Notes under the pieces: generated by a model
What the model was told of the DNA's origin: nothing
Database searches by the model: none
What the model saw: the letters and a program-made list of their open reading frames with translations, nothing else
Origin: Spirochaetia bacterium
Lineage (GTDB): Bacteria > Spirochaetota > Spirochaetia > SZUA-6 > Bin103
Direction: 5' to 3'
DNA length: 64,000 nt
NCBI GenBank assembly: GCA_965198005.1
Contig: CBDAOI010000003.1
Location: forward strand, 768,479-832,478
Program-made: the position numbers and the translations under genes
Shown here: in pieces, positions 15,882 through 45,320 of the stretch
Position numbering within the stretch: the first letter of the stretch is position 1
How the letters are laid out: every line of letters begins with the position of its first letter

Positions 15882-16200
15882 ATGAGCAAGCACATGATAA
15901 CCGTCGCGGTGACCGGCTCGGTGCCGACGCGCGACCAACATCCCGGCCTCCCCCACACCCCCGCGGAGATCGCCGACGCCACCTACGACTGCTACCGAGC
16001 AGGCGCCGCCATCGTCCATATCCATGTGCGCGATCCCGAGACCGGGGTCCCCACCTACCGCCTCAAGCTATTTCGCGAGTGCGTCGAGAGGATCCGCGAC
16101 AAGTGCGACATCCTCATCAACCTGACGACCAGCGGCAACAACATCCCCCGTAAGAACGTCATTGAGGAACGGCTGGTGTTGCGTTGCGCGCCCCGAGCCG
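15882..16200 (+). pseudogene. N-terminal ~105-aa fragment of a BKACE-family enzyme (3-keto-5-aminohexanoate cleavage enzyme, DUF849).
   Basis: MITVAVTGSVPTRDQHPGLPHTPAEIADATYDCYRAGAAIVHIHVRDPETG…ILINLTTSGNN matches the BKACE N-terminal TIM-barrel signature. Homology stops at ~16200 where the putative transposon end begins. Full-length enzymes are ~280-310 aa. Confidence 0.65.
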
Positions 16201-16204
16201 AGGT

Positions 16205-16331
16205 TAGTTGCATGATAGATGGCGCGGAGTGTGGGCGGTGGTCGTTCCGTTCCGAGTGCGTCCCTGGTGCGGAACAAGGGAACAGCGGAACAGTGGTCGG
16301 ATGAGAGCGAGCAGGCAGGCGACGGGCGGGG
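16205..16331. repeat. Putative transposon terminal region with reiterated GTTCCG/CGGAAC motifs.
   Basis: CGTTCCGTTCCGAGTGCGTCCCTGGTGCGGAACAAGGGAACAGCGGAACAG lies between the truncated BKACE gene and the AAA_25/tniB/tniA module. No matching opposite end was identified in the window. Confidence 0.35.
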
Positions 16332-17273
16332 TCAGGCCGGCAGGTGCCAGCCGGCGGGGCTGCGGACGGCGAGGCCGCGCTGTTCAAGGGTTTGGAGGGC
16401 GAGACCGAGACGGGCGTTGTTGACGCGCAAGCGTTGGCGGAGGGCGGTCCTGGAGAGCGGCTGGCCGGCGCTGCGGAGAGCGGCGCGCACCGCCTCGGCG
16501 AGCGGGGGCGGCGGGGCGGCAGCACTGTCGACGAGCAGGGAGAGGGGCTGGTCAGCGCCGCCTGAGAGGCGCAGCAGGAGGGGATCGGGAGCGGGAGCGG
16601 CGCGGTGCTCGACGGTGAGTTGGAGACGGTCGTCGGGGCGCCGCACCAGATAGCAGGCGGAGTCGGTCCAGGCGTGCAGGTCGGAGGAGCCGCGCAGAGA
16701 CTGGCCGAGATTGCGGCGCGAGCGCTTGGCCATGTGGTGGACGAGGACCAGAGCGAGTTGATAGCGGCGGTTGAGGGCGCGCAGAAAGCCGAGCAGAGAA
16801 GAGATGTCTGAGGCGCTGTTCTCGTCGAGACAATGAAGTCGGACCAGAGGGTCCAACAGCAGGAGTATGGGACGGATCTGAGCCACGGTCTGGTCGAGCG
16901 CGAGCTGGTCGCGCTCGGTATCGAGGCGCAGCCGGTCGGAGGTGACGACGTGCAGGTCGAGGCGGGTTAGGTCCAGGCCGCGGTGGCGGCACAAGTGGGC
17001 GACACGGTCGCGGACGCGGGGCAGAGCATCCTCGGCGAGATAGACCAGGGCGGGACCGGTGGCCTCGACCGGGAACCGCCCGAGGGCTGGGGTGCCGGAC
17101 GCGACCGAGACCGCGAGATCAAGTCCTAGCCAAGACTTACCAACTTTGGGCTGACCCCCGATTGCCCCCACGGCGGCGGCGGTCCAGAGGTCGTGCACCA
17201 ACCACTGGGGGGTGTCGGATTGGGGATCGATGGCATGGACGGGAACGGTGGGCAGCGGTTTGGTCATGGCCAC
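16332..17273 (-). CDS. AAA_25 / RepA-like RecA-fold ATPase associated with the tni module.
   Basis: …GAIGGQPKVGKSWLGLDLAVSVASGTP… is a Walker A loop in the AAA_25 context. Its start overlaps the tniB stop by 10 nt (17264-17273). Confidence 0.6.
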   Translation of the reverse strand: MAMTKPLPTVPVHAIDPQSDTPQWLVHDLWTAAAVGAIGGQPKVGKSWLGLDLAVSVASGTPALGRFPVEATGPALVYLAEDALPRVRDRVAHLCRHRGLDLTRLDLHVVTSDRLRLDTERDQLALDQTVAQIRPILLLLDPLVRLHCLDENSASDISSLLGFLRALNRRYQLALVLVHHMAKRSRRNLGQSLRGSSDLHAWTDSACYLVRRPDDRLQLTVEHRAAPAPDPLLLRLSGGADQPLSLLVDSAAAPPPPLAEAVRAALRSAGQPLSRTALRQRLRVNNARLGLALQTLEQRGLAVRSPAGWHLPA

Positions 17274-18067
17274 AGGTACCTGCGAGCGGCGATCACGTCA
17301 CCGGCACTGACGGTGGTGGCGGGGGTCTTGGCGGCGTGCTGCAGCGCCGCCAAGGCCAAGCGGTCGATGGCCCGCAGGTTGCCGTGGCTCATTTCGAAGA
17401 TGGTTTCCTGAGCGTCGCCGTCGAAGGGATTGGTGCGAGCGCCGGCGAGGGTGCAGCGATGTTCGACGTAGGCGCAGGTCTCATCCCGGGAGAGCAGACG
17501 CAGTTCGGCGTAATGCGCCAGACGGTGCGCGATGCCGGTTTGTTCGGGGCGTCGGAGGAGCAGTTTCAGGTGTGGCTGGCCGGCGAGCACGAGGGACACG
17601 ACGAGGCGACTGTCCATTTCGAAGTTCGTGAGGACCCTCAACATGGCCAACGCTTCGGGGCGCAGATCATGGGCCTCGTCGAACAGGATGACCGGGCGCA
17701 GACCGTCGCTGGCGGTGTGTTCGAAAGCCTCCTGCAGCTTGCGCACCAGAGCGGGATAAATGCCGGTGGGAGAGAGGCCGCAGGCGACGGCGATTTCCTT
17801 GCACAGGTCACGCTTGGAGAGGCCGGTCACCTTGACGTAATGGACCTGGAAGCGCGCCTCCGGCAGAGCGGCGAAGAGCATGCGCAAGGCGACGGTCTTA
17901 CCGGTGCCGGCGGGAGCGATGAGGGCGGCGCTCATGCGCTCCTGCACCGCCTCGGTGAGTGCGGTGGCGACCTGTGCTTGAGGTTCGAGAGGGAACCGCT
18001 CGCGCACGGTCAACTCGCGGGTAAAGGGGGTCTTGCGGAAGCCCAGTGGGCTGAGGTCATGGCTCAT
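17264..18067 (-). CDS. tniB: TniB-type transposition ATPase (AAA_22 / ExeA-like).
   Basis: Motifs: LIAPAGTGKTVAL (Walker A), ILFDEAHDL (Walker B), LVLAGQPHL. Its start overlaps the tniA stop by 4 nt (18064-18067). Confidence 0.75.
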   Translation of the reverse strand: MSHDLSPLGFRKTPFTRELTVRERFPLEPQAQVATALTEAVQERMSAALIAPAGTGKTVALRMLFAALPEARFQVHYVKVTGLSKRDLCKEIAVACGLSPTGIYPALVRKLQEAFEHTASDGLRPVILFDEAHDLRPEALAMLRVLTNFEMDSRLVVSLVLAGQPHLKLLLRRPEQTGIAHRLAHYAELRLLSRDETCAYVEHRCTLAGARTNPFDGDAQETIFEMSHGNLRAIDRLALAALQHAAKTPATTVSAGDVIAARRYLWP

Positions 18068-18735
18068 GGGTGCTGCTCCTGGTCGTGTTGGTCGTCCTGT
18101 GGATCGCTATAGCCGCCCTCGGGGTCGACCAGCGGGCGCAGGTCGTTGGCGTAGGCGATGCCGGCCGCAGTGGCAGGCAGTTCCTCGCCGTCCTCGTCGG
18201 CGGTCGGTTGCGGCGCGCGACCGGAGCCGCGCGGCGCGGTCGCGTTGGCGTGGGGGTCCACCTCAGCCAGCTCGATCATGCGCCCCTGGTGCTGAACCCA
18301 CAGCCGACCGTCGAGCACGTGGCGTGCCACCTCGACCCAACTGGCAGCGCTGCGGCGCGGCGCTTCCCACAACCGACCGTCGGCCTTGATGACGTGATCG
18401 TTGGAGACCTTGTGCATGGCGCGCACCACGAAGCGGCGGTACAGATCGGCGTCGTCTGTGGGGAAGCGTAGGGGACGCCCTTGCTCCCAGCGCTGACGCG
18501 GGGTGGTATCCTTGCCCAGAGTCTCGTGTGGGGTGTCGTTGTAGCGGTCGAGGAAGTGGCGCAGGCGGAGCGTGAGTGCCTCGCAAGCGGGGTCCACGTC
18601 GGCGGCGCCGTCGAGGGACCGCAGCACCTGATCGTACGCGGTGCGGTTGAAGCGCTCGATGGCGCCGTGGCCCTCGGGATACCTGGTGGCGCCGTGGATC
18701 AGCAAGGCGCCCAGTCCGCCCTGGATCACGCTCAA
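18064..18735 (-). pseudogene. tniA: C-terminal part of a Mu/TniA-type DDE transposase (tniA) separated from its N-terminal part by the RIT insertion.
   Basis: …HGAIERFNRTAYDQVLRSL… is the rve catalytic-core C-terminus. The upstream sequence (18766 onward) is a RIT inverted repeat, not tniA. Confidence 0.7.
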
Positions 18736-18891
18736 CGTGTCGAGGGAGATGAATCCCGGGCCTTTATCAAGGAAATGCCGAATTCGGCATTACCTTGATT
18801 ATCCCGAAAAAAATGAAATGCCGAAGTTTGTCGGTAACTTGTTTCCACACAAACAGATAGCGTTGCAAACTTCGGCATAACATTGGGGCTC

Positions 18892-19920
18892 TTAGAGGCC
18901 GCACAGCCGCCTCAGACTCTCCTCATCCTTCCAGGCGGGCGTTTCGTCCGCCAGCCCGGGATCTGCTCGCTCGATGGCTTTGCGCAGCATCTCGGTATCC
19001 GCGGAAGCATAGATCTCAGTGGTAGTCACGCTTGCATGTCCCAGGAATTCCGCAATATAAGGAAGCGGCATCCCGGACTGATAGAGATGCATCGCACGGC
19101 TATGTCGAAACAGATGAGGGTGCACTCTCGGCGGCACCTCAGCACATGTCGTGCGCGCACCTTCGCCGTAGTTCTTGACCAATACGCTGATCGCATCGGT
19201 GGATAGCATGTGCGGCCTACCCGCGTGCAGGGAATAGAACAGCGGCACTTCGTGACGGTCGGCGGGGCCAGCATGGAATTGCCGTAGATATTCCTTCAGA
19301 TGGGCAACGGTCTTGTCCATGAGAGGAACACTTCTGGTTTTGTTGCCTTTGCCGGTCACCAGTACGAATGGAGTTCTTGCCTCCAGATGGAAGTCGGTGA
19401 CGCGCAAGTCGACCAGCTCTTGAACCCTGGCTCCTGTGTCGTATAGCAGAATCATGATCATCCTGTTCCGTCTCCCCTTTACGGTTGTCTTATCAGGTTG
19501 AGCGAGCACCGTCCTCAGGGCCGTCTGCGACAGGTAACCGACCGGCGTCCGGGCCATCTTCAGTAATGGAATCTTTTTCACCTCCTGGAACACACTATAG
19601 AGGCTGACGTCTTCATCCGCACAGTATCTGAGGAATGCCTTGAGAGCGGATAGTCTGAGATTGCAGGTTGCGACTCCGCACGGCCTCTGGCGCAGCCACT
19701 GAATGTACTTGATCACCGAGTCTCGCGTGAAGTGATCCCATGATACATTCGCGAACTTGATCCGATGTTGTGCTTCGAGGAAGTCGCAGTACATGCCTAT
19801 CGATCGTCTGTAGGAGTCAACGGTGTGCGCACTGCAACAGCGTATTTTCGGCAGGTGCACCGTGAGGTACTCACGTACACACTTCCAGAATTGTTGTCCC
19901 GATGTGCTATCCCTGGTCAT
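18892..19920 (-). CDS. ritC: RIT tyrosine recombinase C (third gene of the trio).
   Basis: C-terminal catalytic motifs: …HPHLFRHSRAMHLYQSGMPLPYIAEFLGHASVTTTEIYA (R…HxxR…Y). The start is probably MTRDSTSGQQFWK, overlapping the ritB stop by ~14 nt. The longer ORF from 20076 is spurious. Confidence 0.75.
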   Translation of the reverse strand: MTRDSTSGQQFWKCVREYLTVHLPKIRCCSAHTVDSYRRSIGMYCDFLEAQHRIKFANVSWDHFTRDSVIKYIQWLRQRPCGVATCNLRLSALKAFLRYCADEDVSLYSVFQEVKKIPLLKMARTPVGYLSQTALRTVLAQPDKTTVKGRRNRMIMILLYDTGARVQELVDLRVTDFHLEARTPFVLVTGKGNKTRSVPLMDKTVAHLKEYLRQFHAGPADRHEVPLFYSLHAGRPHMLSTDAISVLVKNYGEGARTTCAEVPPRVHPHLFRHSRAMHLYQSGMPLPYIAEFLGHASVTTTEIYASADTEMLRKAIERADPGLADETPAWKDEESLRRLCGL

Positions 19921-20875
19921 GGTCCACCTCCGGAAGAATGGCCTCAGTGGCGCGCACCTTGGCCGCGAATGTAGCGAAGAACTCGGGAACCAGGTGAAGG
20001 TAGTAATCGGTACTTGCCAGGCTGGCGTGTCCCATGTACCTGCTGAGATAGGGGAGCATGGCGTTGACCTCAACACCGGTCGCGATCCACCGGTTCAGAT
20101 TGCTGAGCGCAAAGTGGTGCCTGAAGTCATACGCACGCGGTCGGTTGCCGCATCCCGCTCCCAGGCCCGCCGCCTTCCAGATGCGGTTGAATACTGCTGC
20201 TACGCTGCCGCCGCTGTAGCAATCCGATCTCGTTGTCGGGAAAAAGTAGATTCTCCCGGGATATATCACGGACACTCGTGCGGCATATCGACGGAGCAGA
20301 CCCAGAACGTCGGCCGGCACCGGAAGTCTGCGACTTCTGCAACCCTTCGAACGCATGATGTCGATGTGGCTGGCTTCCAGATCAACCTGCTCAACGCGCA
20401 GCGTTCTTGCCTCACCGGTCCTCAGACCACAGCAATACAGGAGGCGGAAGAATACCGGCAGGACCAGATGTCGCGCCTGCGCCGTCCCATGGGACTGGAG
20501 CTTGTCGCAGGCGCCGAAGAATGCCGTAATCTCCTGGTGAGTAAAGAAATGAGGCACGTACCTAGCGGCGGCACGGATGCCGGCTGAGGGAAGCACGAAG
20601 GCATCTGCAACGCCGATCGACTGCATATACTTGCCAAGTTCACGGATCGGCGATATCCGGATACGATGCCCTGCCAGATTTTCTCCGTCCTTGGCTTTCG
20701 CCCAACCGTGGACCAACTCTCTGCCGAGGGATTGGAATGCGGGATGCCGGGCTGCGTATCTGTCGAAATCATGGAGATAGAACTCAGCGCTCTCATAGGA
20801 GTAGCCAACGGCGCGCTTGGTCGCGACCAGTCCCGAGATAAAGGGTGCAAACAGGCTTGAGTATGCAGTATTCAT
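19907..20875 (-). CDS. ritB: RIT tyrosine recombinase B.
   Basis: …YDFRHHFALSNLNRWIATGVEVNAMLPYLSRYMGHASLASTDYYLH is a catalytic C-terminus. The likely start MNTAYSSLF gives an ATGA overlap with the ritA stop. Confidence 0.75.
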   Translation of the reverse strand: MNTAYSSLFAPFISGLVATKRAVGYSYESAEFYLHDFDRYAARHPAFQSLGRELVHGWAKAKDGENLAGHRIRISPIRELGKYMQSIGVADAFVLPSAGIRAAARYVPHFFTHQEITAFFGACDKLQSHGTAQARHLVLPVFFRLLYCCGLRTGEARTLRVEQVDLEASHIDIMRSKGCRSRRLPVPADVLGLLRRYAARVSVIYPGRIYFFPTTRSDCYSGGSVAAVFNRIWKAAGLGAGCGNRPRAYDFRHHFALSNLNRWIATGVEVNAMLPYLSRYMGHASLASTDYYLHLVPEFFATFAAKVRATEAILPEVDHDQG

Positions 20876-22107
20876 GACAGGCCTGCGCAGTTCACGGGAA
20901 TCTTGGCGAGGTCCAACGCACACTCCCTCATGCGCTGTTGGTCGGTCGCCAAGTAGACGTCGGTCGACTCTTTGTGGGCGTGTCCAAGCATGGTCGAAAT
21001 GGTAGTGACCGGGACCCCCTTGGAGAGCATCCTGGAGGCCGCAGAGTGACGCAGCACATGGAGCCCTTTGCGTTCGCTACCAACCCTTATCCCGGCTTGG
21101 AGGAAGGCTCGCCGAAGCACTGCATAACAGGCCGCATGGCCTGACAGAACGGTGAATGGGGCTAGACAACGAAGGAATACATATGAAGTAGCCGTTGTTG
21201 GACGCTCATTGAGCAGGTAAGCGGAGAGCGCATTGCCAACATCCGCGATCAGCGGGATCTTGAAGGCGATTCCGGTCTTTGACTGGGCGATTGTGATGGT
21301 GTCATTGATCCAGTCGATATCTGTGAGTTTGATCCTCAGGATGTCTACGGAACGCAATCCGGTTCGCAAGGCCAACAGGATGATGGCCTTATCCCGAAGC
21401 CGGAGTTGGCCGTTCTGCAGCACCTTTTCCAGTGCATCGTTTTCGTGGTCCAAAAGGATCGGTATGATTGGCCTGTTTCTGACACAGCGTGAAGGGACTG
21501 CCAATAGCAGCCGTTCTTCGGTTTCTGCGAATCTGAGAAACGAGCGGATGTTCGAGGCAACGGTACGAATACTGGTGGGCCGGTATGTGGCGAGCAGATG
21601 CTGGAAGAAAGCCGGTACCATAGCGGCGCTGGCGAGCGCCAGCGAAGTGCAGTCGTGGTCCTCCAGGAACAACAGGAATTGGCGGACTGCGCTGGCACAT
21701 GATTGTATCGTATTCGCGCTTTTGTTTGTGGCTGCAAGCTCGTCCATGAACCTCTCATGCAGGAGCAGCAATTCTCTCGACTTGGGCATCGGCTGGCAGT
21801 CGAATGTGTACGTGGTCCACCTGATTGCTCCGTTGGCGACGTATTCTTGCAGTATCAACGATGCTCGTCTGAGATGGTTTCGTCTGCCACGTCCGATTGC
21901 GCCCGCCTTGTGCTGTTCCTCTAGGTCATGCAGGAAACTTTGGATCAGACTGTCGCAGAAACGTTCGACGTTGCGCGCGGCTGCGTACTGCTTGAGCCGC
22001 CTATATGTTTGTCGATAGTGGTTGATCGTTATCGGGTCAAGGCCGAACTTTCCGATCTCCTGAAGAACGCTCTCGACAAGATCGTCCAACAATAGGTTGT
22101 CGTGCAT
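20872..22107 (-). CDS. ritA: RIT tyrosine recombinase A (largest, 411 aa).
   Basis: …LHVLRHSAASRMLSKGVPVTTISTMLGHAHKESTDVYLA is a catalytic C-terminus. It is first in the trio and lies directly inside IR-R. Confidence 0.75.
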   Translation of the reverse strand: MHDNLLLDDLVESVLQEIGKFGLDPITINHYRQTYRRLKQYAAARNVERFCDSLIQSFLHDLEEQHKAGAIGRGRRNHLRRASLILQEYVANGAIRWTTYTFDCQPMPKSRELLLLHERFMDELAATNKSANTIQSCASAVRQFLLFLEDHDCTSLALASAAMVPAFFQHLLATYRPTSIRTVASNIRSFLRFAETEERLLLAVPSRCVRNRPIIPILLDHENDALEKVLQNGQLRLRDKAIILLALRTGLRSVDILRIKLTDIDWINDTITIAQSKTGIAFKIPLIADVGNALSAYLLNERPTTATSYVFLRCLAPFTVLSGHAACYAVLRRAFLQAGIRVGSERKGLHVLRHSAASRMLSKGVPVTTISTMLGHAHKESTDVYLATDQQRMRECALDLAKIPVNCAGLS

Positions 22108-22183
22108 TGTGCACCTCCCTGATGATGTCCAGATGGATGTCTGGCGCTCTCATCATAGAAGGGGCCTTGCCCATCGGCCAATA

Positions 22184-22960
22184 TTATGCCGAAGTTTGCA
22201 ACGCTATCTGTTTGTGTGGAAACAAGTTACCATCAAACTTCGGCATTTCATTTTTTTCGGGATAATCAAGGAAGAACAAATCAGCCAAGCCGTGCCGTAT
22301 GACCAGCGCCCAGAGAGCGCGCAGGAACAGCTCGCTGGACTCCGCGGTGCCCACCAGCACTCCCAGGCCGTAGCGCGTGGCATCGTCAATCAGGAACAAG
22401 GCGACCCGGCGCAGACGTGCGGCGCCGGCGCGGAAATGCTTGCCGTCAGCGAGCACGCACTGCATGCGCTGCGCATAGCGCCAGCGCCGCATGTCCCCCT
22501 CACGCTTGTGCGGTCGTTGGCGCGTCGGCAGCCCCATCCGCCGGCAGGCGCGCCACACGGTGGTGCGATCGATCTTGGCGTCGACCGGGATGATGCCGAG
22601 CTCCCGCGCGCGGCGCACCAGTTCCGGCACCGAGGCGCGCGCATCACGCTGCTTCTCGGTGCGCAGAAAGGTGACCAGTTTGGGACTCAGCGCCAGTGAG
22701 GTCGCGATGCGGGTGCGGCTCTGCGGCGTCAGGGCAGCGAGGCTGCCGGCGGCCCAGGCAGCGCGCCAGCGTTGCAAGCTGCGTACGCTGACCCGCACCG
22801 GGCGCCCGTCCAGGTCCACGCGGTCGGTGCCGGCAACGCGGCGTACGGCGGCGCCTGCGGGCCAGCCGCGCACCACCAGGGCCTCGACCTCGGCGACCAC
22901 CAGGTAGCGCTGCAGCGCGGTGGTCGAGACCGGTAGCGGGGGACGATCTGAATCATTCAT
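22184..22960 (-). pseudogene. tniA: N-terminal part (HTH plus start of the DDE core) of the tniA transposase interrupted by the RIT element.
   Basis: …RVALFLIDDATRYGLGVLVGT… is the first catalytic-D region. The frame then reads into RIT IR-R (…DYPEKNEMPKF…). The start ATG overlaps the stop of orf312 (ATGA at 22957-22960). Confidence 0.7.
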
Positions 22961-23895
22961 GAGCGTACCGTAGCGCCTCCGGGGGCGCCTCGATCAAGCA
23001 ATTTCGTAGTGGGTGGAGCGCGCTCCCGAGGGCTCCCGGCACCCCCCTGTTCCCGCGCTGCGGAAGCCTCGGTCGGGGCCACGATCCAGCTCTTGCCGGC
23101 CTGCTCCCAGCGCGCCACCAGCCGCGGGCGCGGCGGCCCCCACAGGTCGCTCACCGCCCCGGCCGCCGCCATGCGGTCCCCCAGCGTGGCGGCGGCCGTG
23201 ATCGCCCGCAGCACGGCCACGATCGCTGCGCCGCGGCTCTGCCAACTGCGCCCCCAGCGCGCGGCGCCGTCCCGCACGGTCATGGTCGCTACGCCCAACC
23301 GCGTCGCGATCCGTTCGCGGGCGCCCTCGTCCAACCCCGGACTCACCCCGGTCAGGCGTCCGGCCACCTCCAGGCGGCGTCCTTGGGTGCGCCGCCGGCG
23401 CCGCTCCGGAGAGCGGTGCCACCAGTGCACCTCGGCTGGCCAGTGCTCCCCCCGCGCCGCATCCTGCGCCGCCGCAAACAGCGTCGCCTGCCACTGCGGT
23501 CGTCTGCCGGCTGCGTCCAACAGCAGGTCCCCACTTGCGCTACAGGGTGTCGCCGCAACGCGGCCATACGGGTAGTGTCCGGGCGGATACAGGGTGTAGC
23601 GCCGGCCTCCATGGACCCGGCACCCCACCACCGCTACCGCGTGGCAGGGCCCGCTCTTGCGCTTTCGGTAATGATCGACGAAGATGGCACACGTCTGCTC
23701 CCCTGTGGCGTAGACGCACCGCGACGGCAGCACGGCGCGCAAGGTCCCGTCCTGATCCGCTTGGTAGTTCGTCGTCGCCAACGGGAGCGCGTGTGCCTCG
23801 GTTGCACCCTCGGACACTCGCTGCCTCTCGTGAGCCTTGGCGGGCGGTTGTCTCCCGCCCGCCAAGGCCGCCTGAAAAAGTGAAGCCCGCAGCAT
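22957..23895 (-). CDS. Hypothetical 312-aa protein translationally coupled upstream of tniA.
   Basis: Its stop overlaps the tniA start (ATGA). It is Arg/Ala-rich with a Cys/His-containing segment, QTCAIFVDHYRKRKSGPCHAVAVVGCRVHGGRRY. No recognisable domain was found. It could in part be a GC-rich artefact. Confidence 0.4.
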   Translation of the reverse strand: MLRASLFQAALAGGRQPPAKAHERQRVSEGATEAHALPLATTNYQADQDGTLRAVLPSRCVYATGEQTCAIFVDHYRKRKSGPCHAVAVVGCRVHGGRRYTLYPPGHYPYGRVAATPCSASGDLLLDAAGRRPQWQATLFAAAQDAARGEHWPAEVHWWHRSPERRRRRTQGRRLEVAGRLTGVSPGLDEGARERIATRLGVATMTVRDGAARWGRSWQSRGAAIVAVLRAITAAATLGDRMAAAGAVSDLWGPPRPRLVARWEQAGKSWIVAPTEASAAREQGGAGSPRERAPPTTKLLDRGAPGGATVRS

Positions 23896-23995
23896 TCACC
23901 TGCTGCGGGCTCCTCACTTTATACCCCTATCGCTTCTCCGCCTACGCCATCATCACCGCAACCGGTACCCCCTCACCGCGCCCTTGGGCGCGCAA

Positions 23996-25684
23996 CGAAG
24001 AACTCAGGCACGTGCGTACGTCATATACCGGGACCTGGGAGGTCTTCGGGTCGTCCCGGCGAGTCGTCGCCGGGACCGCGGAGGGAAGGCGTGAGGCTGG
24101 ACCAAAGATGAACGACCCGAAGGAGTCGGACATGGGCATAGTAGCGGCGAAGCCGGCGAACAAGGGAGCGCAAGCGACTGCGGAGACGGTGGAGCGAAGG
24201 CCCATGACCAACGGGAATTCGCAAGGTCAAAGCACGGGCCGGACGCAGAGTCGGGCAACCGTGACACAGGCGGCCGAGCGGATACGGCAATTCGTAAAGA
24301 GAGAACCGCAGGAGAAACTCACTGCGCTGCTGCACCACGTGACGCCGGAAGCGCTGCGGGTGGCCTATTACGCGCTGAAGCGTGAAGCGGCCCCGGGGGT
24401 GGACGGGATGACGTGGCGGGAGTACGAGACGGGGTTGGAAGTGCGTTTGCACGACCTGCACCGGCGAGTACACACAGGAGCGTACCGAGCGACCCCGGTA
24501 CGGCGGGTCAACATCGACAAGCCGGACGGAGGCACACGACCGCTGGGGGTGGCCGCGCTGGAGGACAAGATCGTCCAGAAGGCCGTGGTGGATGTGATCC
24601 TGACACCGATCTATGAGGAGGAATTTCTCGGGATCAGCTATGGGTTTCGACCGGGGCGAGGGGCACACGATGCGTTGGACGCACTGGCCTACGCCATCGA
24701 ACGGCGCGAAGTGAACTGGATATTGGACGCGGACATTCGCGCCTACTTCGACACGATCTCGCGGGACTGGTTGATCAGATTCCTGGAGCATCGGATTGGA
24801 GATCGGCGGGTGCTGCGGCTGATAAAGAAGTGGCTGCGCGCTGGGGTACTGGAAGAAGGCCGACAGATCGACGCGGGGCGGGGTACAGCGCAAGGGTCGG
24901 TGATTTCACCGATGCTCGCGAATATATACTTGCACTACGTGTTGGACCTGTGGGTCACCAAGAAGTGGCGGCCGCAGGAGGCGCGCGGAGACATGATCAT
25001 AGTGCGCTACGCAGATGACTATGTCGCCGGGTTCGAGCATCGTGACGATGCGGAACGCTTCCTGCGGGAACTGAAGGAGCGATTCAGAGGCTTCGAGCTG
25101 GAACTGAACGCCGACAAGACCCGACTCCTCGAGTTTGGACGGTATGCCGAAAGGAACCGCCGAGCACGTGGGGAAGGGCGACCGGAGACGTTCGACTTTC
25201 TGGGTTTCACGCATTATTGCAGGAAGGACAGGAAAGGACGCTTCGGGCTGGGGCGGAAGCCAATTCGGAAGCGGATGAATCGTACGCTGAAGAGGATCAA
25301 GATCGAACTCCGCAGACGCATGCATGATGACGTGATGGAAACCGGGCGCTGGCTGGGACGGGTACTGCGCGGATGGCTCAACTACTACGCGGTATGCGCG
25401 GATGGCTCAACTACTACGCGGTACCCACCAGCTACCGCTACCTGCACCGATTCGTGTGGCGTCTGCGAGGAATCTGGGTAAAGATTCTACGCCGGAGGTC
25501 CCAGAAGGACCGATTCTCCTGGGCTTGGATGCTGGCGATCAGCATCGAGCTGTGGCCCCAACCCCGAATCGTACACCCATGGCCGGACCGGCGATTTGCC
25601 GTCAACCACCGAAGGTAGGAGCCGGATGGTTTAACGACCACGTCCGGATCTGTGCGGGGGGCGCCGGGTAACCGGCGTTCCTAC
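23996..25684 (+). mobile_element. Group II intron copy 1: a 5'-truncated fragment comprising the domain IV ORF plus domains V and VI.
   Basis: It is co-linear, apart from the 31-bp insertion below, with 45568-47226 of copy 2. It lacks the ~250 nt that precede that point in copy 2. A domain-V-like hairpin GAGCCGGATGGTTTAACGACCACGTCCGGATC lies at 25623-25655. Confidence 0.7.
24204..25620 (+). pseudogene. Group II intron reverse transcriptase/maturase (IEP) disrupted by a 31-bp tandem duplication.
   Basis: RT motifs include …PGVDGMTWREYE… and YADDYV, with a maturase X domain. The direct duplication GCGGATGGCTCAACTACTACGCGGTA at 25367-25428 shifts the frame within …RGWLNYYAV…. Confidence 0.75.
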
Positions 25685-38764: not shown

Positions 38765-39561
38765 TTAGTCGTGGAGTTCATCGGTAACGATGTTGGTGGA
38801 GTCGATGATGCTGATGTCGTTGACGACGGCGTGGAGGATGGAACGATAGCAGACGGCGTTGACCAAGCGCGGCACGCCGCCGGCGTGGCGGTGAATGTCA
38901 GCTTTGGCATCATCGGCGAAGATCGAGGCAGGGCGGCCACAGCGGACGGTGTGGTGGTCGATGTAGCGACAGGTCTCCTCCAGAGCCATGGCCGGCATGT
39001 GATAGGAGATACGGATGCGCTGGCGCAAGGAAGCGAAGGAAACATATCTGAGCAACTCGCGCAGCTCGGGTTGGCCGGCGAGGACGAAGGTGATGGAGTT
39101 TTTGGTGTCGAAGGCAAAGTTGACCATGTTCTTGATGGCCGCCAGGGCGGTGGGGGCGAGGTCCTGGGCATCGTCGAGGATAATCAGTGGTTTCTTGGTC
39201 TGCTCGGGGATGGTCTTGAAGAACAGCTGCCTGGCCTGGCCGGCGAAGAAGGGCGGGTCGATCTTCATCTCATTGAGGATTGCCTTGTAGAGCTGGGCTT
39301 CCGAGAGGCCGGCGCCGCGGACATAGAGGGGGCGGTAGCGGTTGCCGTCGAGTTCGCTAACGAAAGCGGCGAGGGCGACCGACTTGCCGGAGCCGATGGG
39401 GCCGGTGAGGAGCAGGAGATCCTCGTCAGCAACCCCGAAGGAAAGGCGGGAGAGCGCCTCCTGATGGGCGGCGGAGGGGAAGGTATCGGCAGGGCCGAGG
39501 TGTTTGCCGAACGGCAGCCGAGAAAAGCCGAAGAAGGCGAGGACTTGATCATGCATCTGCA
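38765..39561 (-). CDS. Second, divergent TniB/ExeA-like AAA_22 ATPase.
   Basis: Motifs: LLLLTGPIGSGKSVAL (Walker A), LIILDDAQDL (Walker B), VLAGQPEL. The likely start is MQMHDQVLAFFG. The long N-terminal extension of the ORF track is GC-rich run-on. Confidence 0.65.
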
Positions 39562-40310
39562 TCGTGGTGCTCCTGGTCGTTGGTACGGAACTGAGCGAAC
39601 GAAGTCTGGTTGCGGTCGCGGAGCTGGGCGTGGTGCTGCTCGCGCAGGCGGGTGAAGTAGTCACGCGCGGCGGCCGACACCTCAGGCGGCTTGGCGGGGG
39701 ACTCCTCGGGGACCGCCGGCACTTGTGTGGAGACCTGTTTGGAAGCGCTGGTGGTCTCCAGCCGGCCGCCGCCGGGGACGTAGATGGCCAGCTGGGCGAG
39801 GTCGTAGGGGTCGAAGCGGACCTCGACGACGCTGCCATGAGGAACGGCGGTGACAGGGTATTGGTTGCCGTGCAGCTTGATCCTGCCGTACTTGCTGACG
39901 GTGCGCCGTTCGCGCCACAGGAACAGGGCGTTGAAGGTCTCCAGATCGGTGATGCGGCGGTGGTCGGCGGGCAGCCCGTCGCGGAAACGTGCATCGGGAC
40001 TCTGGCCGGTGGCTGAGTGGACGCGGACGTTGTATTCGAGATCCATCCAGGCCCAGAAGGCGGAGTTCAGTTCATCGAGAGTACGCATCCCGGCGACTTG
40101 AGCCTCGCGTTGGAACTGGTTCTTGATGATCTTGTTGGCGGCCTCGACCTTGCCCTTGCAATAACTTTGATAGGGCGGGTGGCGCACTCGTTTGACCTGT
40201 AACTCGACCAGGATGGCGAGCATGTGGCGTGAGATGTAAACTTTTCCGTTGTCGACATAGCACCGAGCCGGCACGCCGTAGCGCAGAACGCAATAGCGGA
40301 AGCTGTCCAT
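39549..40310 (-). pseudogene. C-terminal fragment of a second Mu/TniA-like DDE transposase. The N-terminus is absent.
   Basis: …YVDNGKVYISRHM…HPPYQSYCKGKVEAANK is the rve-core C-terminus. There is no upstream coding continuation beyond 40310. Confidence 0.6.
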
Positions 40311-40789
40311 CAGGGCGGGCAGCTTCTCGTCGAAATAGTACTTGCCGAACAGGATTTTGCGGGAGAAGTCGTTGTCAGCGCCCGCGCTCTGGTAGTGGAA
40401 ACTGGATAGAATTCTCGCTTTGCTGTAGGTGAGACTGAGCAGAGAGAAGAAGGGAGACCGGGAATCAGTGGTTGGACCCCACCCGGTCTCCCCTCAACCA
40501 GTACGATACTCATACTTGATATAGCCCAGGAAAGCTACCACTTCGCTGAGCTCCGAGATAGCTGGCAGCGCGTACTCCAGGGGCTGGGGTGTCCGGCGTG
40601 CGGCAGCACCCGATTGGGGCATCACAGCAGCTACGAGAAGTACCTGTACGAGCAGCCGCTAGCGATTCTGCGGCTGCGCTGCTGGGGGTGTGGGCGCACC
40701 CATGCCGTGATCCCCTCCTGGTCGCTGCCGGACACCTCGGTGGGTACCGCAGAGGTAGAGCGCTACCTGATAGATCGCGAGCGCGGCGC

Positions 40790-40914: not shown

Positions 40915-41291
40915 AACGACTTGCGGGCCGCGATCACGTCACCGGTACTGACGGTGGTGGCGGAGGTCTTGGCGGCGTACTGCAGCGCCGCCAGGGCCAA
41001 GCGGTCGATGGCGCGCAGGTTGCCGCGGCTCATTTCGAAGATGGTTTCCTGTGCATCGCCGTCGAAGGGATTGGTGCGAGCGCCGGCGAGGGTGCAGCGA
41101 TGCTCGACGTAGGCGCGGGTCTCATCCCGGGAGAGCAGGCGCAACTCGGCGTAATGCGCCAAGCGGTGCGCGATGGCGGCTTGGTCAGGACGCCGCAGGA
41201 GCTGTCTGAGGGGTGGCTGACCGGCCAGCACCAGGGACACGACCAGGCGACTGTCCATTTCGAAGTTCGTGAGATATGCCGCTAGCGGCAT
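40905..41291 (-). pseudogene. tniB: C-terminal 128-aa fragment of tniB (paralogue of 17264-18067).
   Basis: …LTNFEMDSRLVVSLVLAGQP…AHRLAHYAELRLLSRDET…AARKSLWP is collinear with the first tniB C-terminus. The Walker A and B region is missing. Confidence 0.7.
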
Positions 41292-41401
41292 ATTGACCCT
41301 ATGCCGACCGCCCGATTATGCCGCGTGGTGGAGCACGGGCGGGTATTCCGTGTGTTCCAGCAGGTGCAACGGCGGTGAACGCGCCGTGAGGGTCGGCATA
41401 A

Positions 41402-42392
41402 TTACAGGGCTTCCAGGAAGGCGAGGAGCGCGTCGGGGGGACGATAGCGCCCGGGAGTGGTGTGAGCCGGAGCAGTTTTCGCCAGGGCGCGTTCCTTGAG
41501 TCCGAGGTGGGCATGGAGATAGACCTGTGTCGTCTGGACGCTCTCGTGGCCGAGCCACAGTGCGATCACGGAAGTGTCAATGCCCGCCTCCAGGAGCCGC
41601 ATCGCCGCAGTGTGGCGCAGTACATGTGGTGAGACCCTTTTGGCGCCCAGGGACGGGCACGCGAGCGCGGCGACGCGGGTGTGCTTGGCCAGCAGACGCT
41701 CGACCGCATCACGGCTGAGTGGTCGACTGAGCTGGCTGGGAAACAGCGCGGCGTGCGGGTCACCAGCGAGTTCGCGGAGCCACACTTGGAGCACTGCTAC
41801 AGTCTGGACGGTGAGCGGGGTGACGCGATCTTTGCGTCCTTTGCCGTGGCAGCGTACGTGAGCGCCACGGTCCAGACGGACGTCACAGCCGCGCAGGCCG
41901 ACCAGTTCGGAAACGCGCAGGCCGGTCTGCACAGCCAGGACAAGCAACGCATGGTCGCGCCGACCGATGCGCGTAGTACGATCGGGGGCTGCGAGCAACG
42001 CATCGACCTCAGTTGGGGTCAGAAAGCTCACTTCGGTGCGATGCTGTCGCTTCGCCGGGATCGCGAGCACCCGCTGGATCATGTGGGCGTGATCGGGGTG
42101 ACGCAGCTCGGCGAAGCGAAACAGGGAATGAATCGCGACCAGACGGGCGTTCCTGGTGCGCGCGCTGTTGCCACGGTCATGTTCGAGATGATTGAGGAAC
42201 GCGTCGATGACGGCCACGTCCAGATCGATGAGAAGCAACTGCGACGGCGGCTTGCCGAGCCGCGCAGTAGTGAACGCGAGCAGCAGCCGAAAGGTGTCAC
42301 GGTAGGCAGCTACCGTGTGCGGGCTGGCCTGACGTTCGCCGAGCAAGCGCTGGGTGAAGAACGTCTGGAGAGTAGGTGCCAGGGTGCTCATG
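41402..42392 (-). CDS. Tyrosine recombinase, RitC-like.
   Basis: …VSPHVLRHTAAMRLLEAGIDTSVIALWLGHESVQTTQVYLHA is a catalytic C-terminus. Its architecture matches ritC at 18892-19920. The probable start is MSTLAPTLQ. The flanking region 41283-41401 carries TATGCCGA repeats and the palindrome ATATGCCGCTAGCGGCATAT. Confidence 0.7.
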
Positions 42393-42867
42393 TCATTTCT
42401 CCCCAGGCCTGTTCGACACCGAGTCGCTGGGCGGCCACCGTCAGCAACTCGGGAACGGCCTGCAGATACCAATAGGTGGAAGCCGGATGGCTATGGCCGA
42501 GATACGCCGCCAGCGCTGGCAGCTTGGCAGCCACGTCGACGCCATCGCGATACCAGCCGAGCAGCGTGTTGATGGCGAAGCTGTGACGTAACCCATGCAG
42601 CCGGGGACGACATGATAGCGAGCGTGGTTGGATGCCGACCTCGTTCGCCAAGTCCACAAACACCTTGCGGACGACGGGATAGAGCAGCGGGGTTCCAGCG
42701 GCTGAGACAAAGAAGCTTGCTGCCTTGGGCTTCGGACAGAGCCGATCTCGCTCCTGCGTGTAGGTAGCCAGAGCGTCGCTGGTCGAAGGATGCAACGGCA
42801 GGAGACGGGACTTGTTGAACTTGCTCTGACGTACGTTCAGCAGGCGGTGACCGCTCCAGCCTTGCAT
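42388..42867 (-). pseudogene. C-terminal catalytic fragment of a RitB-like tyrosine recombinase.
   Basis: …LHGLRHSFAINTLLGWYRDGVDVAAKLPALAAYLGHSHPASTYWYLQAVPE parallels the ritB C-terminus. The N-terminal half is absent. Confidence 0.65.
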
Positions 42868-43277: not shown

Positions 43278-44921
43278 CTACGCGGCCGGAGCAGAGCGGT
43301 AGCTGGCACAGCGCGGGTCGCGCCGTCGGTTATGGACGGTGCAGCGCAAACGCAAATTGACCATGTCGTTATTGCCGCCCTGCGCCACCGGCACGATGTG
43401 GTCGATCTGCACCAGGTGGGTCGACCCGCAGGTCACGCCGGTGAGCGGGTCCTGGTAGCAGCAAGCCCCACCGTCCCTTCGCCACACCGCACGTCGCACC
43501 GCCTCTGGAATGTGCCGCCTCCCCCGGCGCGCGCGGGCGGATTCGGGTGCTGGCGGGCGCGACGCCGTGCGATCTCCGGACAGCCGCGCTCGCACACCGG
43601 AGTGCAACTCGGCGGCCGTCCGGGAAGGCCCCTTCCCTGCCCGCGGCGCCTGCTGGTTCTGCGCCGAACTCGGAGTGCCGCGGCGAACCTGCTCGCTTCC
43701 CGGGGTCGCTACTGTCTGCGCTTGCCGGTTCGGCGCCGAACCGCGGGCAGGTGCGACGCTGGAGTCGGCCGCAACAGGACCGGGCGCAGGAGAGCTGGCA
43801 GCGACCGAGCCGGCGTGGCGCGGAGTCCGAGCACCACTCCGATCCGCTGCCCGCGGCGCTTGTTGGTCCTGCGCCGAACTGCCACCGCGTGCGCCCGCGG
43901 TGCCGGCGGCGACCGGACCGCGTGTGGGAAAGCCGCCATCAACCGAGCCGGCGTGGCGCGAAGTCCGATCGCCACTCCGGTCCGGGACCCGCGGCGCCTG
44001 TTGGTTCTGCGCCGAACTGCCGGCAAGTGCGACGCCGGGGCCGGCGGCGACCGGAGCGGGTGCGGGGCTGCCAGCAACCGGACCCGCGGCAACCGAACTG
44101 CGGGCAGCCGCGGTCGCGGGCACCCCCTCGCCAGGCACACTAGTGGCGCAGGTCGACGAGCCGGCCTCGGGCGTAGCCGCGCCCACCGCACCTCCGGCGA
44201 CCCGGCGTTTGCCGGTGCCGCCGCGTTCCTGCTCGCACGTTTCGGCGGGCCGCGTCGGCACCGCCGCCCCCCGCTTGGCCCGGCCCCGCTCCCGCATCGG
44301 GTCGTACTTCCGCTCCGCCTGCTGCAGCAGGTAGGCGAGCAGTTGCCCGGTGGTGAAGCGCGGGTTCACGTGCGACAGCCAGCCCTTCAGCTTGGCGATG
44401 GTGTCTATACTGCTCTGGTCCAGGATCACCCGCACCGCGTAGCGGCCGCCGCCGAGGGCGCGCTGCTGCTCTCGCGGCAGGCCCAGCTCGGGCTCCAGTT
44501 CCGCCAGCAGCTTCTCGGTCTCACGGGCCGACTTGTTGGCGACCAGATCGACCAGTTCGACCTTCTGGTCCCGGGTCCATGCCGGTGGTGGTTCCGTCGC
44601 GGGCGGCGGCGGCGCAGACTCGCGGGCCGCACCCGGGGGCGGCGACGCAGCGGCCGACGCCAACGCCGCCGGGGATGCGGCCGCGGCCTTCCCGGCTGCG
44701 GCCGCGGTTTCCGCCTCCGGCGACGTCGCCGGCCCTGGCGCCAGCGCTGCGGCAGGCGCGACTTCCTGGGTTCCCGCGACTTCCGTCTGCGCCGGGTGCA
44801 CCCCTCCAGCCGACGACTCCCCGGCGCCCACACTTACAGCGCCCGTCGCCGACACGCTCGCCGACTCACGGACGGCCTTACGGGCCGCTTTCCGCGCACG
44901 CTTTTCAATCGCGTTCTGCAA
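43278..44921 (-). CDS. HNH endonuclease domain protein with an internal low-complexity tandem-repeat linker.
   Basis: C-terminus: …CCYQDPLTGVTCGSTHLVQIDHIVPVAQGGNNDMVNLRLRCTVHN is an HNH motif. The middle carries ~3 copies of a ~50-aa unit (SSAQNQQAPRxxDRSGxRTxRHAGSV…). A structured N-terminal region sits around KLKGWLSHVNPRFTTGQLLAYLLQ. Confidence 0.6.
   Translation of the reverse strand: MQNAIEKRARKAARKAVRESASVSATGAVSVGAGESSAGGVHPAQTEVAGTQEVAPAAALAPGPATSPEAETAAAAGKAAAASPAALASAAASPPPGAARESAPPPPATEPPPAWTRDQKVELVDLVANKSARETEKLLAELEPELGLPREQQRALGGGRYAVRVILDQSSIDTIAKLKGWLSHVNPRFTTGQLLAYLLQQAERKYDPMRERGRAKRGAAVPTRPAETCEQERGGTGKRRVAGGAVGAATPEAGSSTCATSVPGEGVPATAAARSSVAAGPVAGSPAPAPVAAGPGVALAGSSAQNQQAPRVPDRSGDRTSRHAGSVDGGFPTRGPVAAGTAGARGGSSAQDQQAPRAADRSGARTPRHAGSVAASSPAPGPVAADSSVAPARGSAPNRQAQTVATPGSEQVRRGTPSSAQNQQAPRAGKGPSRTAAELHSGVRARLSGDRTASRPPAPESARARRGRRHIPEAVRRAVWRRDGGACCYQDPLTGVTCGSTHLVQIDHIVPVAQGGNNDMVNLRLRCTVHNRRRDPRCASYRSAPAA
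43590..44060. repeat. ~150-bp coding tandem repeats (about 3 copies) within the HNH gene.
   Basis: Units such as CTGTTGGTTCTGCGCCGAACT…GCCGGCGTGGCGCG…CACTCCG recur in register on the DNA. Confidence 0.6.
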
Positions 44922-45059
44922 CTGACTCGCGGTGACACCGCGTCAGCACCGCTCCTCCCGCTCGCGTCCGGTGAGGGCTGGCGGCGTGGCGCCGTCGTCG
45001 GGAGTGAAAGCCGGTGTTACCGGCGCAAGCAAGAAACGGGCCACGGGTCGCAGACCCGA

Positions 45060-45320
45060 GATCCGATCATTGGCCTGTTGATCGCGCTGGCGGTCGGCAT
45101 CTACTCGGCGGTGCGCCAGGACACGTTGGGCGATTACGCTGGCCGCAGCGTCGCCATCTTCGGGTTGGCCACGCCCAACTTCTGGCTGGCCCTCATGGTC
45201 CTGATCTTTCCCGGCATCTGGTGGGGCTGGGCGCCCCCGCTGCGATTGTTTGACTTCAGCGAGGATCCGCTGGCCCACATCGGCGCGTTCCTCATCCCCG
45301 GGCGGATCCTGGGTACGAGC
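45060..45320 (+). pseudogene. Internal fragment (~90 aa) of a DppB-type permease truncated at the group II intron boundary.
   Basis: …IGLLIALAVGIYSAVRQDTLGDYAGRSVAIFGLATPNFWLALMVLIFPGIWWGWAPPLRLFDFSEDPLAHIGAFLIPGRILGT matches residues ~125-215 of 50617-51579 and then breaks off. Confidence 0.75.

Follow-up and report, generated by a model that had tools for sequence, protein, structure and literature searches.

The palindrome at the end of a spirochaetal RIT element appears to be a composite junction of element DNA and 6-bp exchange sequences

The closest described relatives of the element analysed here are the RIT elements (Van Houdt et al. 2009, 2012, PMC3414803; Nielsen et al. 2017, PMC5737581), which carry overlapping tyrosine-recombinase genes in the order ritA-ritB-ritC on a unit of ~3.5 kb, are bounded by terminal inverted repeats (IRs) and disrupt genes of other mobile elements. 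An inverted repeat with an 'overlapping palindromic sequence' was described by Van Houdt et al. 2012 (PMC3414803), who judged a search for binding sites unconvincing, and palindromic repeats of 47 and 51 bp in RITs were reported by Nielsen et al. 2017 (PMC5737581); target specificity and movement of RITs are listed as not tested in Table 1 of Idola et al. 2023 (PMC10214605). The DNA considered here, a 64-kb stretch of a Spirochaetia bacterium contig (the window), holds an element, RIT1, that is alike in gene order, size, repeats and choice of site, and one end of which carries a 34-bp near-perfect palindrome. A sequence-only reading of the window had taken this palindrome for a fixed, ritC-proximal terminus with recombinase-binding half-sites and a crossover at its AATT centre. 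We find that interpretation partly supported: the palindrome appears to be a composite, in which 20 bp of element DNA (pal20) lie between two inverted copies of a 6-bp exchange sequence (ov), and ov varies by insertion site and keeps a 'memory' of earlier sites; it is not a fixed end of the element.

RIT1 is an ordinary member of the RIT family. Its three adjacent minus-strand tyrosine-recombinase genes, in the order ritA-ritB-ritC, all match Xer/integrase models (NCBIfam), a tblastn search with RitC found the trio of pHG1 (NC_005241, 38% identity, 95% coverage) and 40 other plasmid trios, and RitA, RitB and RitC each match their own counterpart, in the same order, in ~40 loci. The gene trio, homology to reference Rit subfamilies and terminal IRs bounding a ~3.5-kb unit are all present. 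A 394-aa open reading frame (ORF) considered as ritC gave no exact match, the true start being the ATG at 19920, and a megablast search of the element against PLSDB plasmids gave no match. The comparison drew on eight metagenome contigs encoding an identical RitC (L011-L018), ~40 related insertions and an uninterrupted target copy in the window itself, the compared sequences being mostly metagenome contigs. In the eight contigs the IR-bounded segment, E, is at least 98.5% identical and sits in three different transposase genes; more distant relatives include L001 and L002 (84% and 76% nucleotide identity). Subfamily RITs were found by the pattern AATSCCGAATTCGGSATT, and the metagenome scan comprised 120 stretches (L019-L138), in which many other matches to the pal20 pattern are unrelated hairpins.

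In target orientation the layout is tL-ov-E-ov'-pal20-ov-tR, where E is IR-ritA-ritB-ritC-IR, tL and tR are the left and right target flanks, and the middle ov is inverted; this layout is constant in the contigs with identical RitC. Its parts in the window are:

16177-23997: host transposon containing the RIT, with genes for a transposase and for AAA_22 and AAA_25 ATPases; L016, L011 and L017 are similar up to these limits
18064-18766, minus strand: tR, C-terminal portion of the interrupted host DDE/TniA-like transposase, resuming (GA)T AAA GGC CCG GGA TTC = D-K-G-P-G-F in frame with the upstream half
18767-18772: ov3, exchange (overlap/coupling) sequence of site 3, attR-like; TCAAGG on the plus strand, CCTTGA in target orientation; differs between insertion sites
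18773-18792: pal20, AAATGCCGAA followed by TTCGGCATTA, with half-sites at 18773-18782 and 18783-18792; not in the empty site, kept in 11 relatives
18793-18798: ov2, CCTTGA, of the putative all-element core site (site 2); inverted relative to ov3
18799-18886: ritC-proximal terminal IR of E, from IR detection and footprint alignment, with tip half-site TTATCCCGAA at 18799-18808
18812-18830 and 18866-18884: inner sites of the ritC-proximal IR, AATGAAATGCCGAAGTTTG and CAAACTTCGGCATAACATT
18892-19920, minus strand: ritC, 342 aa, ATG at 19920, 14-nt overlap with ritB
19907-20875, minus strand: ritB, 322 aa, 4-nt ATGA overlap with ritA
20872-22107, minus strand: ritA, 411 aa
22178-22265: ritA-proximal terminal IR, with inner sites at 22179-22198 and 22234-22252 and tip half-site TTCGGGATAA at 22256-22265
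22266-22271: ov1, exchange sequence of site 1, attL-like; TCAAGG on the plus strand
22272-22960, minus strand: tL, the N-terminal part of the interrupted host transposase, ending ...G L A D L F F, then L D

E measures 3467 bp (18799-22265), and its IRs are 88 nt long, or 94 nt with ov included (18793-18886 and 22178-22271), and 97% identical. The GC content of the element is 55-57%, against 65-77% in its surroundings.

The palindrome itself, ATCAAGGAAATGCCGAATTCGGCATTACCTTGAT at 18766-18799, is real and much as it had been described: the two mismatches that had been counted are one mismatched pair (A18773/A18792), and the inner 18 bp are perfect. Folded as a single strand the region reaches -13.4 kcal/mol (z = -6.7), a value equalled by 0 of 200 shuffles. 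The window has just four perfect palindromes without a loop whose arms reach 9 nt or more, and two of them are the RIT palindromes. The heptamer ATGCCGA occurs 29 times in the window where 12.2 +/- 3.5 would be expected (0 of 100 shuffles reach 29), six of these in the two RIT1 ends (18775+, 18784-, 18818+, 18872-, 22186+, 22240-), and the recurrences in both IRs that had been quoted, AAATGCCGAAGTTTG, CAAACTTCGGCATAA and ATTATGCCGAAGTTTG, were all found. Only the last 7 nt of the palindrome overlap the IR, the remainder lying outside it, and its first 7 nt, ATCAAGG, recur in direct orientation at 22265-22271, the opposite end of the element. Its central part can also be written AAATGCCGAA.TTCGGCATTT, two 10-bp half-sites like those of the IRs.

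Which part of the palindrome belongs to the element was resolved by an uninterrupted gene elsewhere in the window:

38765-40372, minus strand: TniA-like transposase (Mu-transpos_C), 5'-truncated and otherwise uninterrupted, then a TniB-like AAA_22 ATPase gene; holds the empty target ..TGTCGA/CAACGG
40252-40257, minus strand: empty target in this paralogous transposase gene, GGTGCTA-TGTCGA-CAACGGAAAAG (C-Y-V-D-N-G-K), with one ov, no pal20 and no E

The empty paralogue lacks pal20 and E, which are therefore inserted DNA. The joined flanks of the L012 insertion match the empty-site gene at 95.6%, and the same gene is occupied in L012, L014 and L018; among the compared sequences there is no empty copy of the window-type target gene, the empty site being in a paralogous L012-type gene. 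It had been asked whether the palindrome might belong to the tniA target rather than to the element, and both answers hold in part: its inner 20 bp are element, but its outer arms of 6-7 bp are not, the outermost copy reading in frame as host transposase codons. In the window ov3 occupies the place of the target's own Leu-Asp codons, the empty site has a single ov copy, and the two halves of the interrupted gene are in frame (..L-A-D-L-F-F-L-D, then K-G-P-G-F..).

The three copies of ov proved to vary among insertions of the same element, the variants being CCTTGA, CCTCGA, CGTCGA, TGTCGA and TACCGA. In the order ov1, ov2, ov3 they read:

Window: CCTTGA, CCTTGA, CCTTGA
L016: CCTCGA, CCTTGA, CCTTGA
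L017: CCTCGA, CCTCGA, CCTTGA
L011: CCTTGA, CCTCGA, CCTTGA
L012: CGTCGA, TGTCGA, CGTCGA
L014: TGTCGA, CGTCGA, CCTTGA
L013: TACCGA throughout

With divergence this low (E at least 98.5% identical), mutation cannot explain these differences. At site 1 of L014 the first four bases (N4) are those of the target and are followed by the element's T, and at site 3 a window-type N4 is followed by the target's C, a pattern that reads as a reciprocal exchange within the 6 bp, with an overlap imported from an earlier site. The element/target joints and the chimeric overlaps of L014, L012 and L016 would place the exchange within these 6 bp. Over 20 complete single-palindrome insertions from several subfamilies, all three copies are equal in 5 and all different in 4, with only ov2 and ov3 equal in 6, only ov1 and ov2 in 3 and only ov1 and ov3 in 2, so that the three are not identical in 15 of the 20. 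The classes in which all are equal, or ov2 equals ov3, or ov1 equals ov2, are those predicted for a symmetric incoming junction and a heteroduplex overlap that segregates at replication.

We note that the half-sites have several of the properties expected of binding sites for a recombinase. An alignment of 11 diverged ends shows invariant islands, namely ATGCCGAAGT, ACTTCGGCATTT, TTCGG(G/C)ATAATC, pal20 and GA(Y)AACGG, between which the sequence drifts; in the same 11 relatives the 4 nt on each side of pal20 are free and the adjoining TC/GA is invariant. Site 2 reads TTCGGGATAA-TCAAGG-(T/A)AATGCCGAA and site 3 TTCGGCATTT-CCTTGA-target, that is, inverted half-sites around a 6-bp spacer, the arrangement of a core-type tyrosine-recombinase site. 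In distant RITs the arms of the palindrome change together with the internal IR sites:

pHG1 (Cupriavidus necator): TAGCGC-AAATGTGCTG.CAGCACATTT-GCGCTA-(TTACCGGCCG..CGGCCGGTAA)-TAGCGC; E ends TTACCGG..CCGGTAA; the arms (CAGCACATTT) resemble the inner IR sites CTGCACATAAA
L003, Erysipelotrichaceae RIT: GTGGTG-TTATCCCGAA.TTCGGGATAA-CACCAC, with CACCAC at the other end; arms and IR sites TTCGGGATAA
L005 and L009, Clostridia-type RITs: GCTGCG-AAATCCTCAT.ATGAGGATTT-CGCAGC-(TTATCCTCATC..GATGAGGATAA)-GCTGCG; arms and IR sites GATGAGGAT

Such co-variation is the behaviour expected of common recombinase-binding sites, and pal20 is probably two putative sites of this kind set back to back. The proposal that the half-sites are candidate binding sites is in this respect supported. 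The 11 relatives and several RIT subfamilies have kept pal20; at least five subfamilies have a common AATGCCGAATTCGGCATT core and differ in tip half-site and target. Simple scans of the Agrobacterium pTi RIT (L142) and the Clostridia RITs L007 and L008 revealed no palindrome.

The subfamily of the window RIT selects NNNNGA/YAAYGG, which in DDE transposases encodes the second catalytic Asp (D-N/K-G), and it occupies these codons in at least nine different DDE transposase genes. The reconstructed window transposase can be aligned through the junction, with no gap, to a transposase of the L012 type (rve/Mu-transpos_C; FLDKG vs YVDNG), which places the window insertion at that residue. Pfam gave no match to the reconstructed window-type transposase, the identity of which rests on NCBIfam IS481-like matches to both halves, the L012-type alignment and the adjoining AAA_22 and AAA_25 genes. 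The right arm of the target has no convincing likeness to the element half-sites beyond a GATAA common with the IR tip, in direct orientation. Subfamilies that have the pal20 core in common with it occupy other conserved motifs:

Tyrosine recombinases: HD-LRH in L064, L088 and L133; R-x-GK in L025 and L113
Large serine recombinase: AE-YER in L095
ParA-type ATPase: L-I-D-N-D-P (D-N-D-P-Q) in L061; the target-side half in L093
rve/Mu-transpos_C_2 (IstA-like) transposase: KPKD/KPRVE in L129
Group II intron reverse transcriptase: GG(I/V)ISP in L140
TniB-like ATPase: L-T/N-F-E-M-D at RIT2, a second RIT in the window

Sites reported earlier, in a Tn6049-like transposase, IS66 tnpA and radC (PMC3414803, PMC5737581), fit this picture of targeting to mobile-element genes.

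The junction has a fixed polarity with respect to the target and a free one with respect to the recombinase genes. In all 13 of 13 Group-A insertions (the window subfamily) pal20 adjoins the GAYAAYGG side. Relative to the genes, 15 contigs have it on the ritC side and 21 on the ritA side, while 4 have a copy at both ends and 2 have none at either, and the notion of a fixed ritC-proximal terminus must be given up. Within the same host transposon (window 16177-23997) the orientation of E in the window and L016 is opposite to that in L011 and L017, and the ov copies at sites 1 and 2 are swapped or homogenised between the opposite copies. Inversion between the inverted sites 1 and 2 would give just this pattern, and independent insertions via either mirror site are equally possible. 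Rearranged forms were also seen. Recombination of RIT with RIT between inverted copies predicts two reciprocal chimeric forms, both of which were found: pal20 at both ends with inverted tR flanks (L013, L110 and L089, with the mini element L074 also carrying it at both ends), and no pal20 with inverted flanks (the Bacillus plasmid L140, and L006). The flanks of L013, L089, L110, L140 and L006 are inverted homologues of the same half of the target gene, and in L013 their identity falls from 99.7% through 92% to 66% over ~650 bp. RITs probably drive inversions between occupied genes.

Mini-RITs of 369-464 bp (L056, L113, L133 and L074), similar to miniature inverted-repeat transposable elements, have two IRs and pal20, no rit genes and the same triplet layout of ov; since they consist of these parts only, they suggest that the IRs and pal20 are the cis-acting sites and are sufficient in cis. 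Midway between the inner half-sites of each IR (18831-18865 and 22199-22233) stands the motif GC(T/C)AT(C/T)T(G/C)TTT, partly conserved across relatives with 54-76% RitA identity, which could be a site for an accessory protein (e.g., IHF-like) or part of a promoter. In L015 (7121-8275) a RIT otherwise identical to that of the window has an insertion sequence of the IS1595 family precisely within its site-2 spacer, where it duplicates ATCAAGG and parts the IR tip from pal20. In L018 (7149-7165) five extra bases, CTCCA, stand between pal20 and the target CGTCGAC in an insertion otherwise identical to that of L012; these may reflect an aberrant exchange or an overlap from another site. A lone pal20 with 14-nt inverted arms (TAACGTTATCCATC / GATGGATAACGGA) occurs in L051 (1500-1560), just downstream of a ROK-family regulator gene and with no RIT or transposase nearby; it may be a footprint or a minimal mobile unit, or may have arisen by chance.

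The second RIT of the window is a degraded copy of the same kind:

41268-42867: RIT2 remnant, with ritC (42472..41402) and a C-terminal fragment of ritB, inserted in a TniB-like ATPase gene
41268-41400: truncated RIT2 end, with ov-like CGTGAG at 41268-41273, pal20 ATATGCCGCT followed by AGCGGCATAT at 41274-41293, and ov-like TGACCC at 41294-41299
41300-41400: RIT2 IR, from the tip TATGCCGACC (41300-41309) to GGTCGGCATA (41391-41400)

Its palindrome, ATATGCCGCTAGCGGCATAT, is perfect as had been reported, but it is located at 41274-41293 and not at 41283-41302, the 9-nt shift having arisen from a centre given as a start; the two repeats noted nearby, TATGCCGACC and GGTCGGCATA, are at 41300-41309 and 41391-41400. 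The 6-bp spacers (TGACCC / CTCACG) mismatch, and the spacing from the tip CGGCAT to the palindrome is 1 nt shorter than in RIT1. No far end of RIT2 was found in the window, either by an IR tip search with up to 8 mismatches or with short motifs, and RIT2 is for this reason regarded as a remnant. Adjoining it are two ORFs, one of 547 aa on the minus strand that ends in an HNH domain (43278-44921) and one for a reverse transcriptase (RVT_1) on the plus strand (45583-47160), and a group II intron or retron-like insertion at 43278-47160 may have truncated it. A further perfect 18-bp palindrome with TTCGGC-like arms, CGGTTCGGCGCCGAACCG, lies past the remnant at 43726-43743; it may be coincidental in GC-rich DNA.

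The account of the palindrome that we favour, and regard as reasonably probable, is that of a composite junction in which the pal20 half-sites and the IR tips form two mirror-image core sites, with crossover in ov. Each core-type site would consist of a half-site, the 6-bp ov and either an IR-tip half-site (TTCGGGATAA) or the target, which gives three sites: site 1, tL-ov-tip (attL-like); site 2, tip-ov'-pal arm (all element); and site 3, pal arm-ov-tR (attR-like). Sites 1 and 3 would be direct repeats with one strong element-derived arm each, and their recombination with each other would release a circle and leave the target whole again. The junction of the circle, tip-ov'-pal20-ov-tip, is predicted to be a long perfect palindrome with two mirror-image attP-like cores, either of which could recombine with a target NNNNGA/YAAYGG, leaving E in either orientation and pal20 always beside tR. 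In-place inversion between sites 1 and 2 would likewise leave E in either orientation and pal20 by tR. Strand exchange would take place in the 6-bp ov (4 free nt plus the conserved GA) with tolerance of heterology, and ov would pass from the donor into the target and then be sorted by replication, in the way of the coupling sequences of Tn916 and CTnDOT.

Several points weigh against this model. The circle junction, IR tips flanking pal20, is absent among the 120 metagenome stretches, and RITs were reported to be enriched in exonuclease-resistant DNA while circular junction reads went undetected (Nielsen et al. 2017, PMC5737581). All three ov match the target in 5 of the 20 insertions though the same element uses another N4 elsewhere, which would call for a bias towards targets that match, or for exchange in several rounds, and ov2 of L014 differs from the value predicted for a window-type donor in a single step. 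Since these are metagenome contigs, the 88-bp IRs could have misled the assembly into opposite orientations of E at an identical locus; the side of pal20 varies in a finished plasmid as well, pHG1, where it is on the ritA side. The model leaves the role of three separate recombinases unexplained, and part of the anatomy may already have been published in Ricker et al. 2013. Finally, what is read directly from the junctions is the anatomy, the element and target parts, how ov varies and retains a memory, the polarity, and the motif that is targeted, and from these we infer protein binding, cleavage positions, the circular intermediate and heteroduplex segregation.

Other explanations of the palindrome have to be weighed against the composite junction. 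The sequence-only reading, in which ATGCCG-N4-CGGCAT is itself the core site, with its crossover in AATT at a fixed ritC-proximal terminus, draws on the likeness of inverted half-sites around a short spacer to a minimal core site and on the presence of the palindrome on the ritC side in both RITs of the window. The overlap of known tyrosine recombinases is 6-8 bp, and the spacer here would be only 4 bp; moreover, pal20 is never split between insertion ends but lies intact on one side of the junction in every case, the element/target joints fall in the 6-bp spacers outside it, and the 21 contigs with pal20 on the ritA side include pHG1, all of which makes a crossover at AATT very improbable. 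Still harder to credit is a role that has nothing to do with recombination, as a terminator or regulatory hairpin of ritC or of the host gene. A stable hairpin does stand 93 nt downstream of the ritC stop codon, but it lacks the T-run 3' of the stem that would accompany the GC-rich stem of an intrinsic terminator, 21 contigs have it upstream of ritA, distant RITs show co-variation between its arms and the IR half-sites, and its outer arms change with the insertion site. An attC-like site was also considered, and the mismatched pair of the window palindrome, the candidate extrahelical base, is missing in the relatives, whose palindromes are perfect. The terminator, attC-like and AATT-crossover readings are rejected on position, sequence and junction evidence.

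Two alternatives remain to be weighed. One would make the three ov a templated target-site duplication, produced by a staggered cut with fill-in or by foldback, and not a carried-over exchange sequence; the window, L001, L132, L129, L056 and L003 do have three identical copies matching the target reading frame. We nevertheless think this rather unlikely, the copies differing in 15 of the 20 insertions though E of the closest elements differs by <1.5%, the variants being ov from other sites of the same element (e.g., CCTTGA at L014 site 3), and the inverted middle copy demanding further steps. The other would have the 32-34-bp palindrome (ov'-pal20-ov) represent the replicated or fused form of a covalently closed hairpin end, made by the Rit recombinases in the manner of telomere resolvases, which cut a dyad-symmetric site 6 bp apart about its axis; the element would then move as a linear molecule capped by hairpins and not as a circle. 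Dyad symmetry is perfect in 11 of the 20 insertions, target-derived nucleotides included, the single-stranded fold is strong, the near-identical IRs would make a head-to-head junction indistinguishable from a circle junction, and the lone pal20 of L051 lies outside any RIT; exonuclease-resistant RIT DNA without detectable circle junctions has been reported, and hairpins proposed (Nielsen 2017, PMC5737581). Replication of a hairpin should, however, give strict symmetry, and ov2 differs from ov3 in 9 of the 20 insertions, near-identical elements among them. The inverted target amounts to 6 nt only, with no longer stretch, the chimeric ov of L014 resembles reciprocal exchange between two duplex sites, and the likeness of the Rit proteins in NCBIfam is to Xer and to integron integrases and not to telomere resolvases. 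A hairpin origin is in our view unlikely, though worth keeping in mind.

The composite junction can be set beside the better known tyrosine-recombinase systems, the site features of dif, loxP and FRT, of the fim switch and shufflons and of Tn916 and CTnDOT being general background. Like Xer dif, Cre loxP and Flp FRT, in which inverted half-sites of ~10-13 bp flank an overlap of 6-8 bp, RIT sites 2 and 3 are built as 10 + 6 + 10; unlike them, the two RIT cores share back-to-back half-sites without a spacer, and one arm of each functional att site is the target. The fim switch and shufflons have inverted sites flanking a segment found both ways, as sites 1 and 2 flank E, but the inverted segment of the RIT is the whole recombinase operon of a mobile element, with no regulatory output evident. 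A parallel in the exchange itself is with Tn916 and CTnDOT, where tyrosine recombinases exchange strands across a short overlap whose sequence may differ between partners, a conserved dinucleotide (GA/TC in the RIT) stands at its edge, and donor overlap bases enter the new site and are sorted by replication; the 7-bp overlap of IntDOT of CTnDOT comprises a conserved GC dinucleotide and 5 heterologous bp. Both marks of a coupling sequence, tolerance of heterology and carriage of the donor ov, are found in the RITs, L014 site 3 bearing the window-type ov. Tn916 and CTnDOT, however, combine a single attP core with arm-type sites and a single integrase with Xis, and they lack a palindromic double core; in the RIT there are three recombinases, and the junction is symmetric, its two cores being mirror images. 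Tn554 and the SEs (PMC10214605) are also multi-recombinase tyrosine transposons, in which six donor-flank bp travel to the new junction; they differ in their asymmetric ends, without long IRs or a palindrome, and their single dedicated att site, while the RIT has symmetric ends and inserts in either orientation. The accessible literature, Ricker et al. 2013 being outside its scope, yielded no description of the ov/E/ov'/pal20/ov layout, the target polarity, the free orientation of E, the variable and memory-bearing ov or the codon-level target motifs. The element family is a known one, but the way in which its junctions are built and its targets chosen appears to be a novel form of site organisation for tyrosine recombinases.

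First described in 2009, RITs occur across bacterial phyla, and the anatomy of the junction makes their mobility directly testable. The IR tips, the inner sites and pal20 emerge from it as the probable cis-acting sites; it also places the crossover in the 6-bp spacer, predicts the structure of the excised junction and allows RIT ends and insertion sites to be called to the base in annotation. The targets further indicate that RIT subfamilies interrupt catalytic codons of transposases, recombinases and partition genes, by which RITs would naturally inactivate other mobile elements and would drive inversions between their own copies. We speculate, as a possibility to which we give somewhat less than even weight, that RITs are sequence-specific parasites of mobile elements, whose subfamilies home into the codons of conserved motifs via a symmetric double-core junction, with pal20 permitting either orientation. 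In the most radical variant of this proposal, tyrosine recombinases would form a hairpin-ended intermediate, of which the palindrome would be the footprint; such a transposition chemistry has not yet been described.

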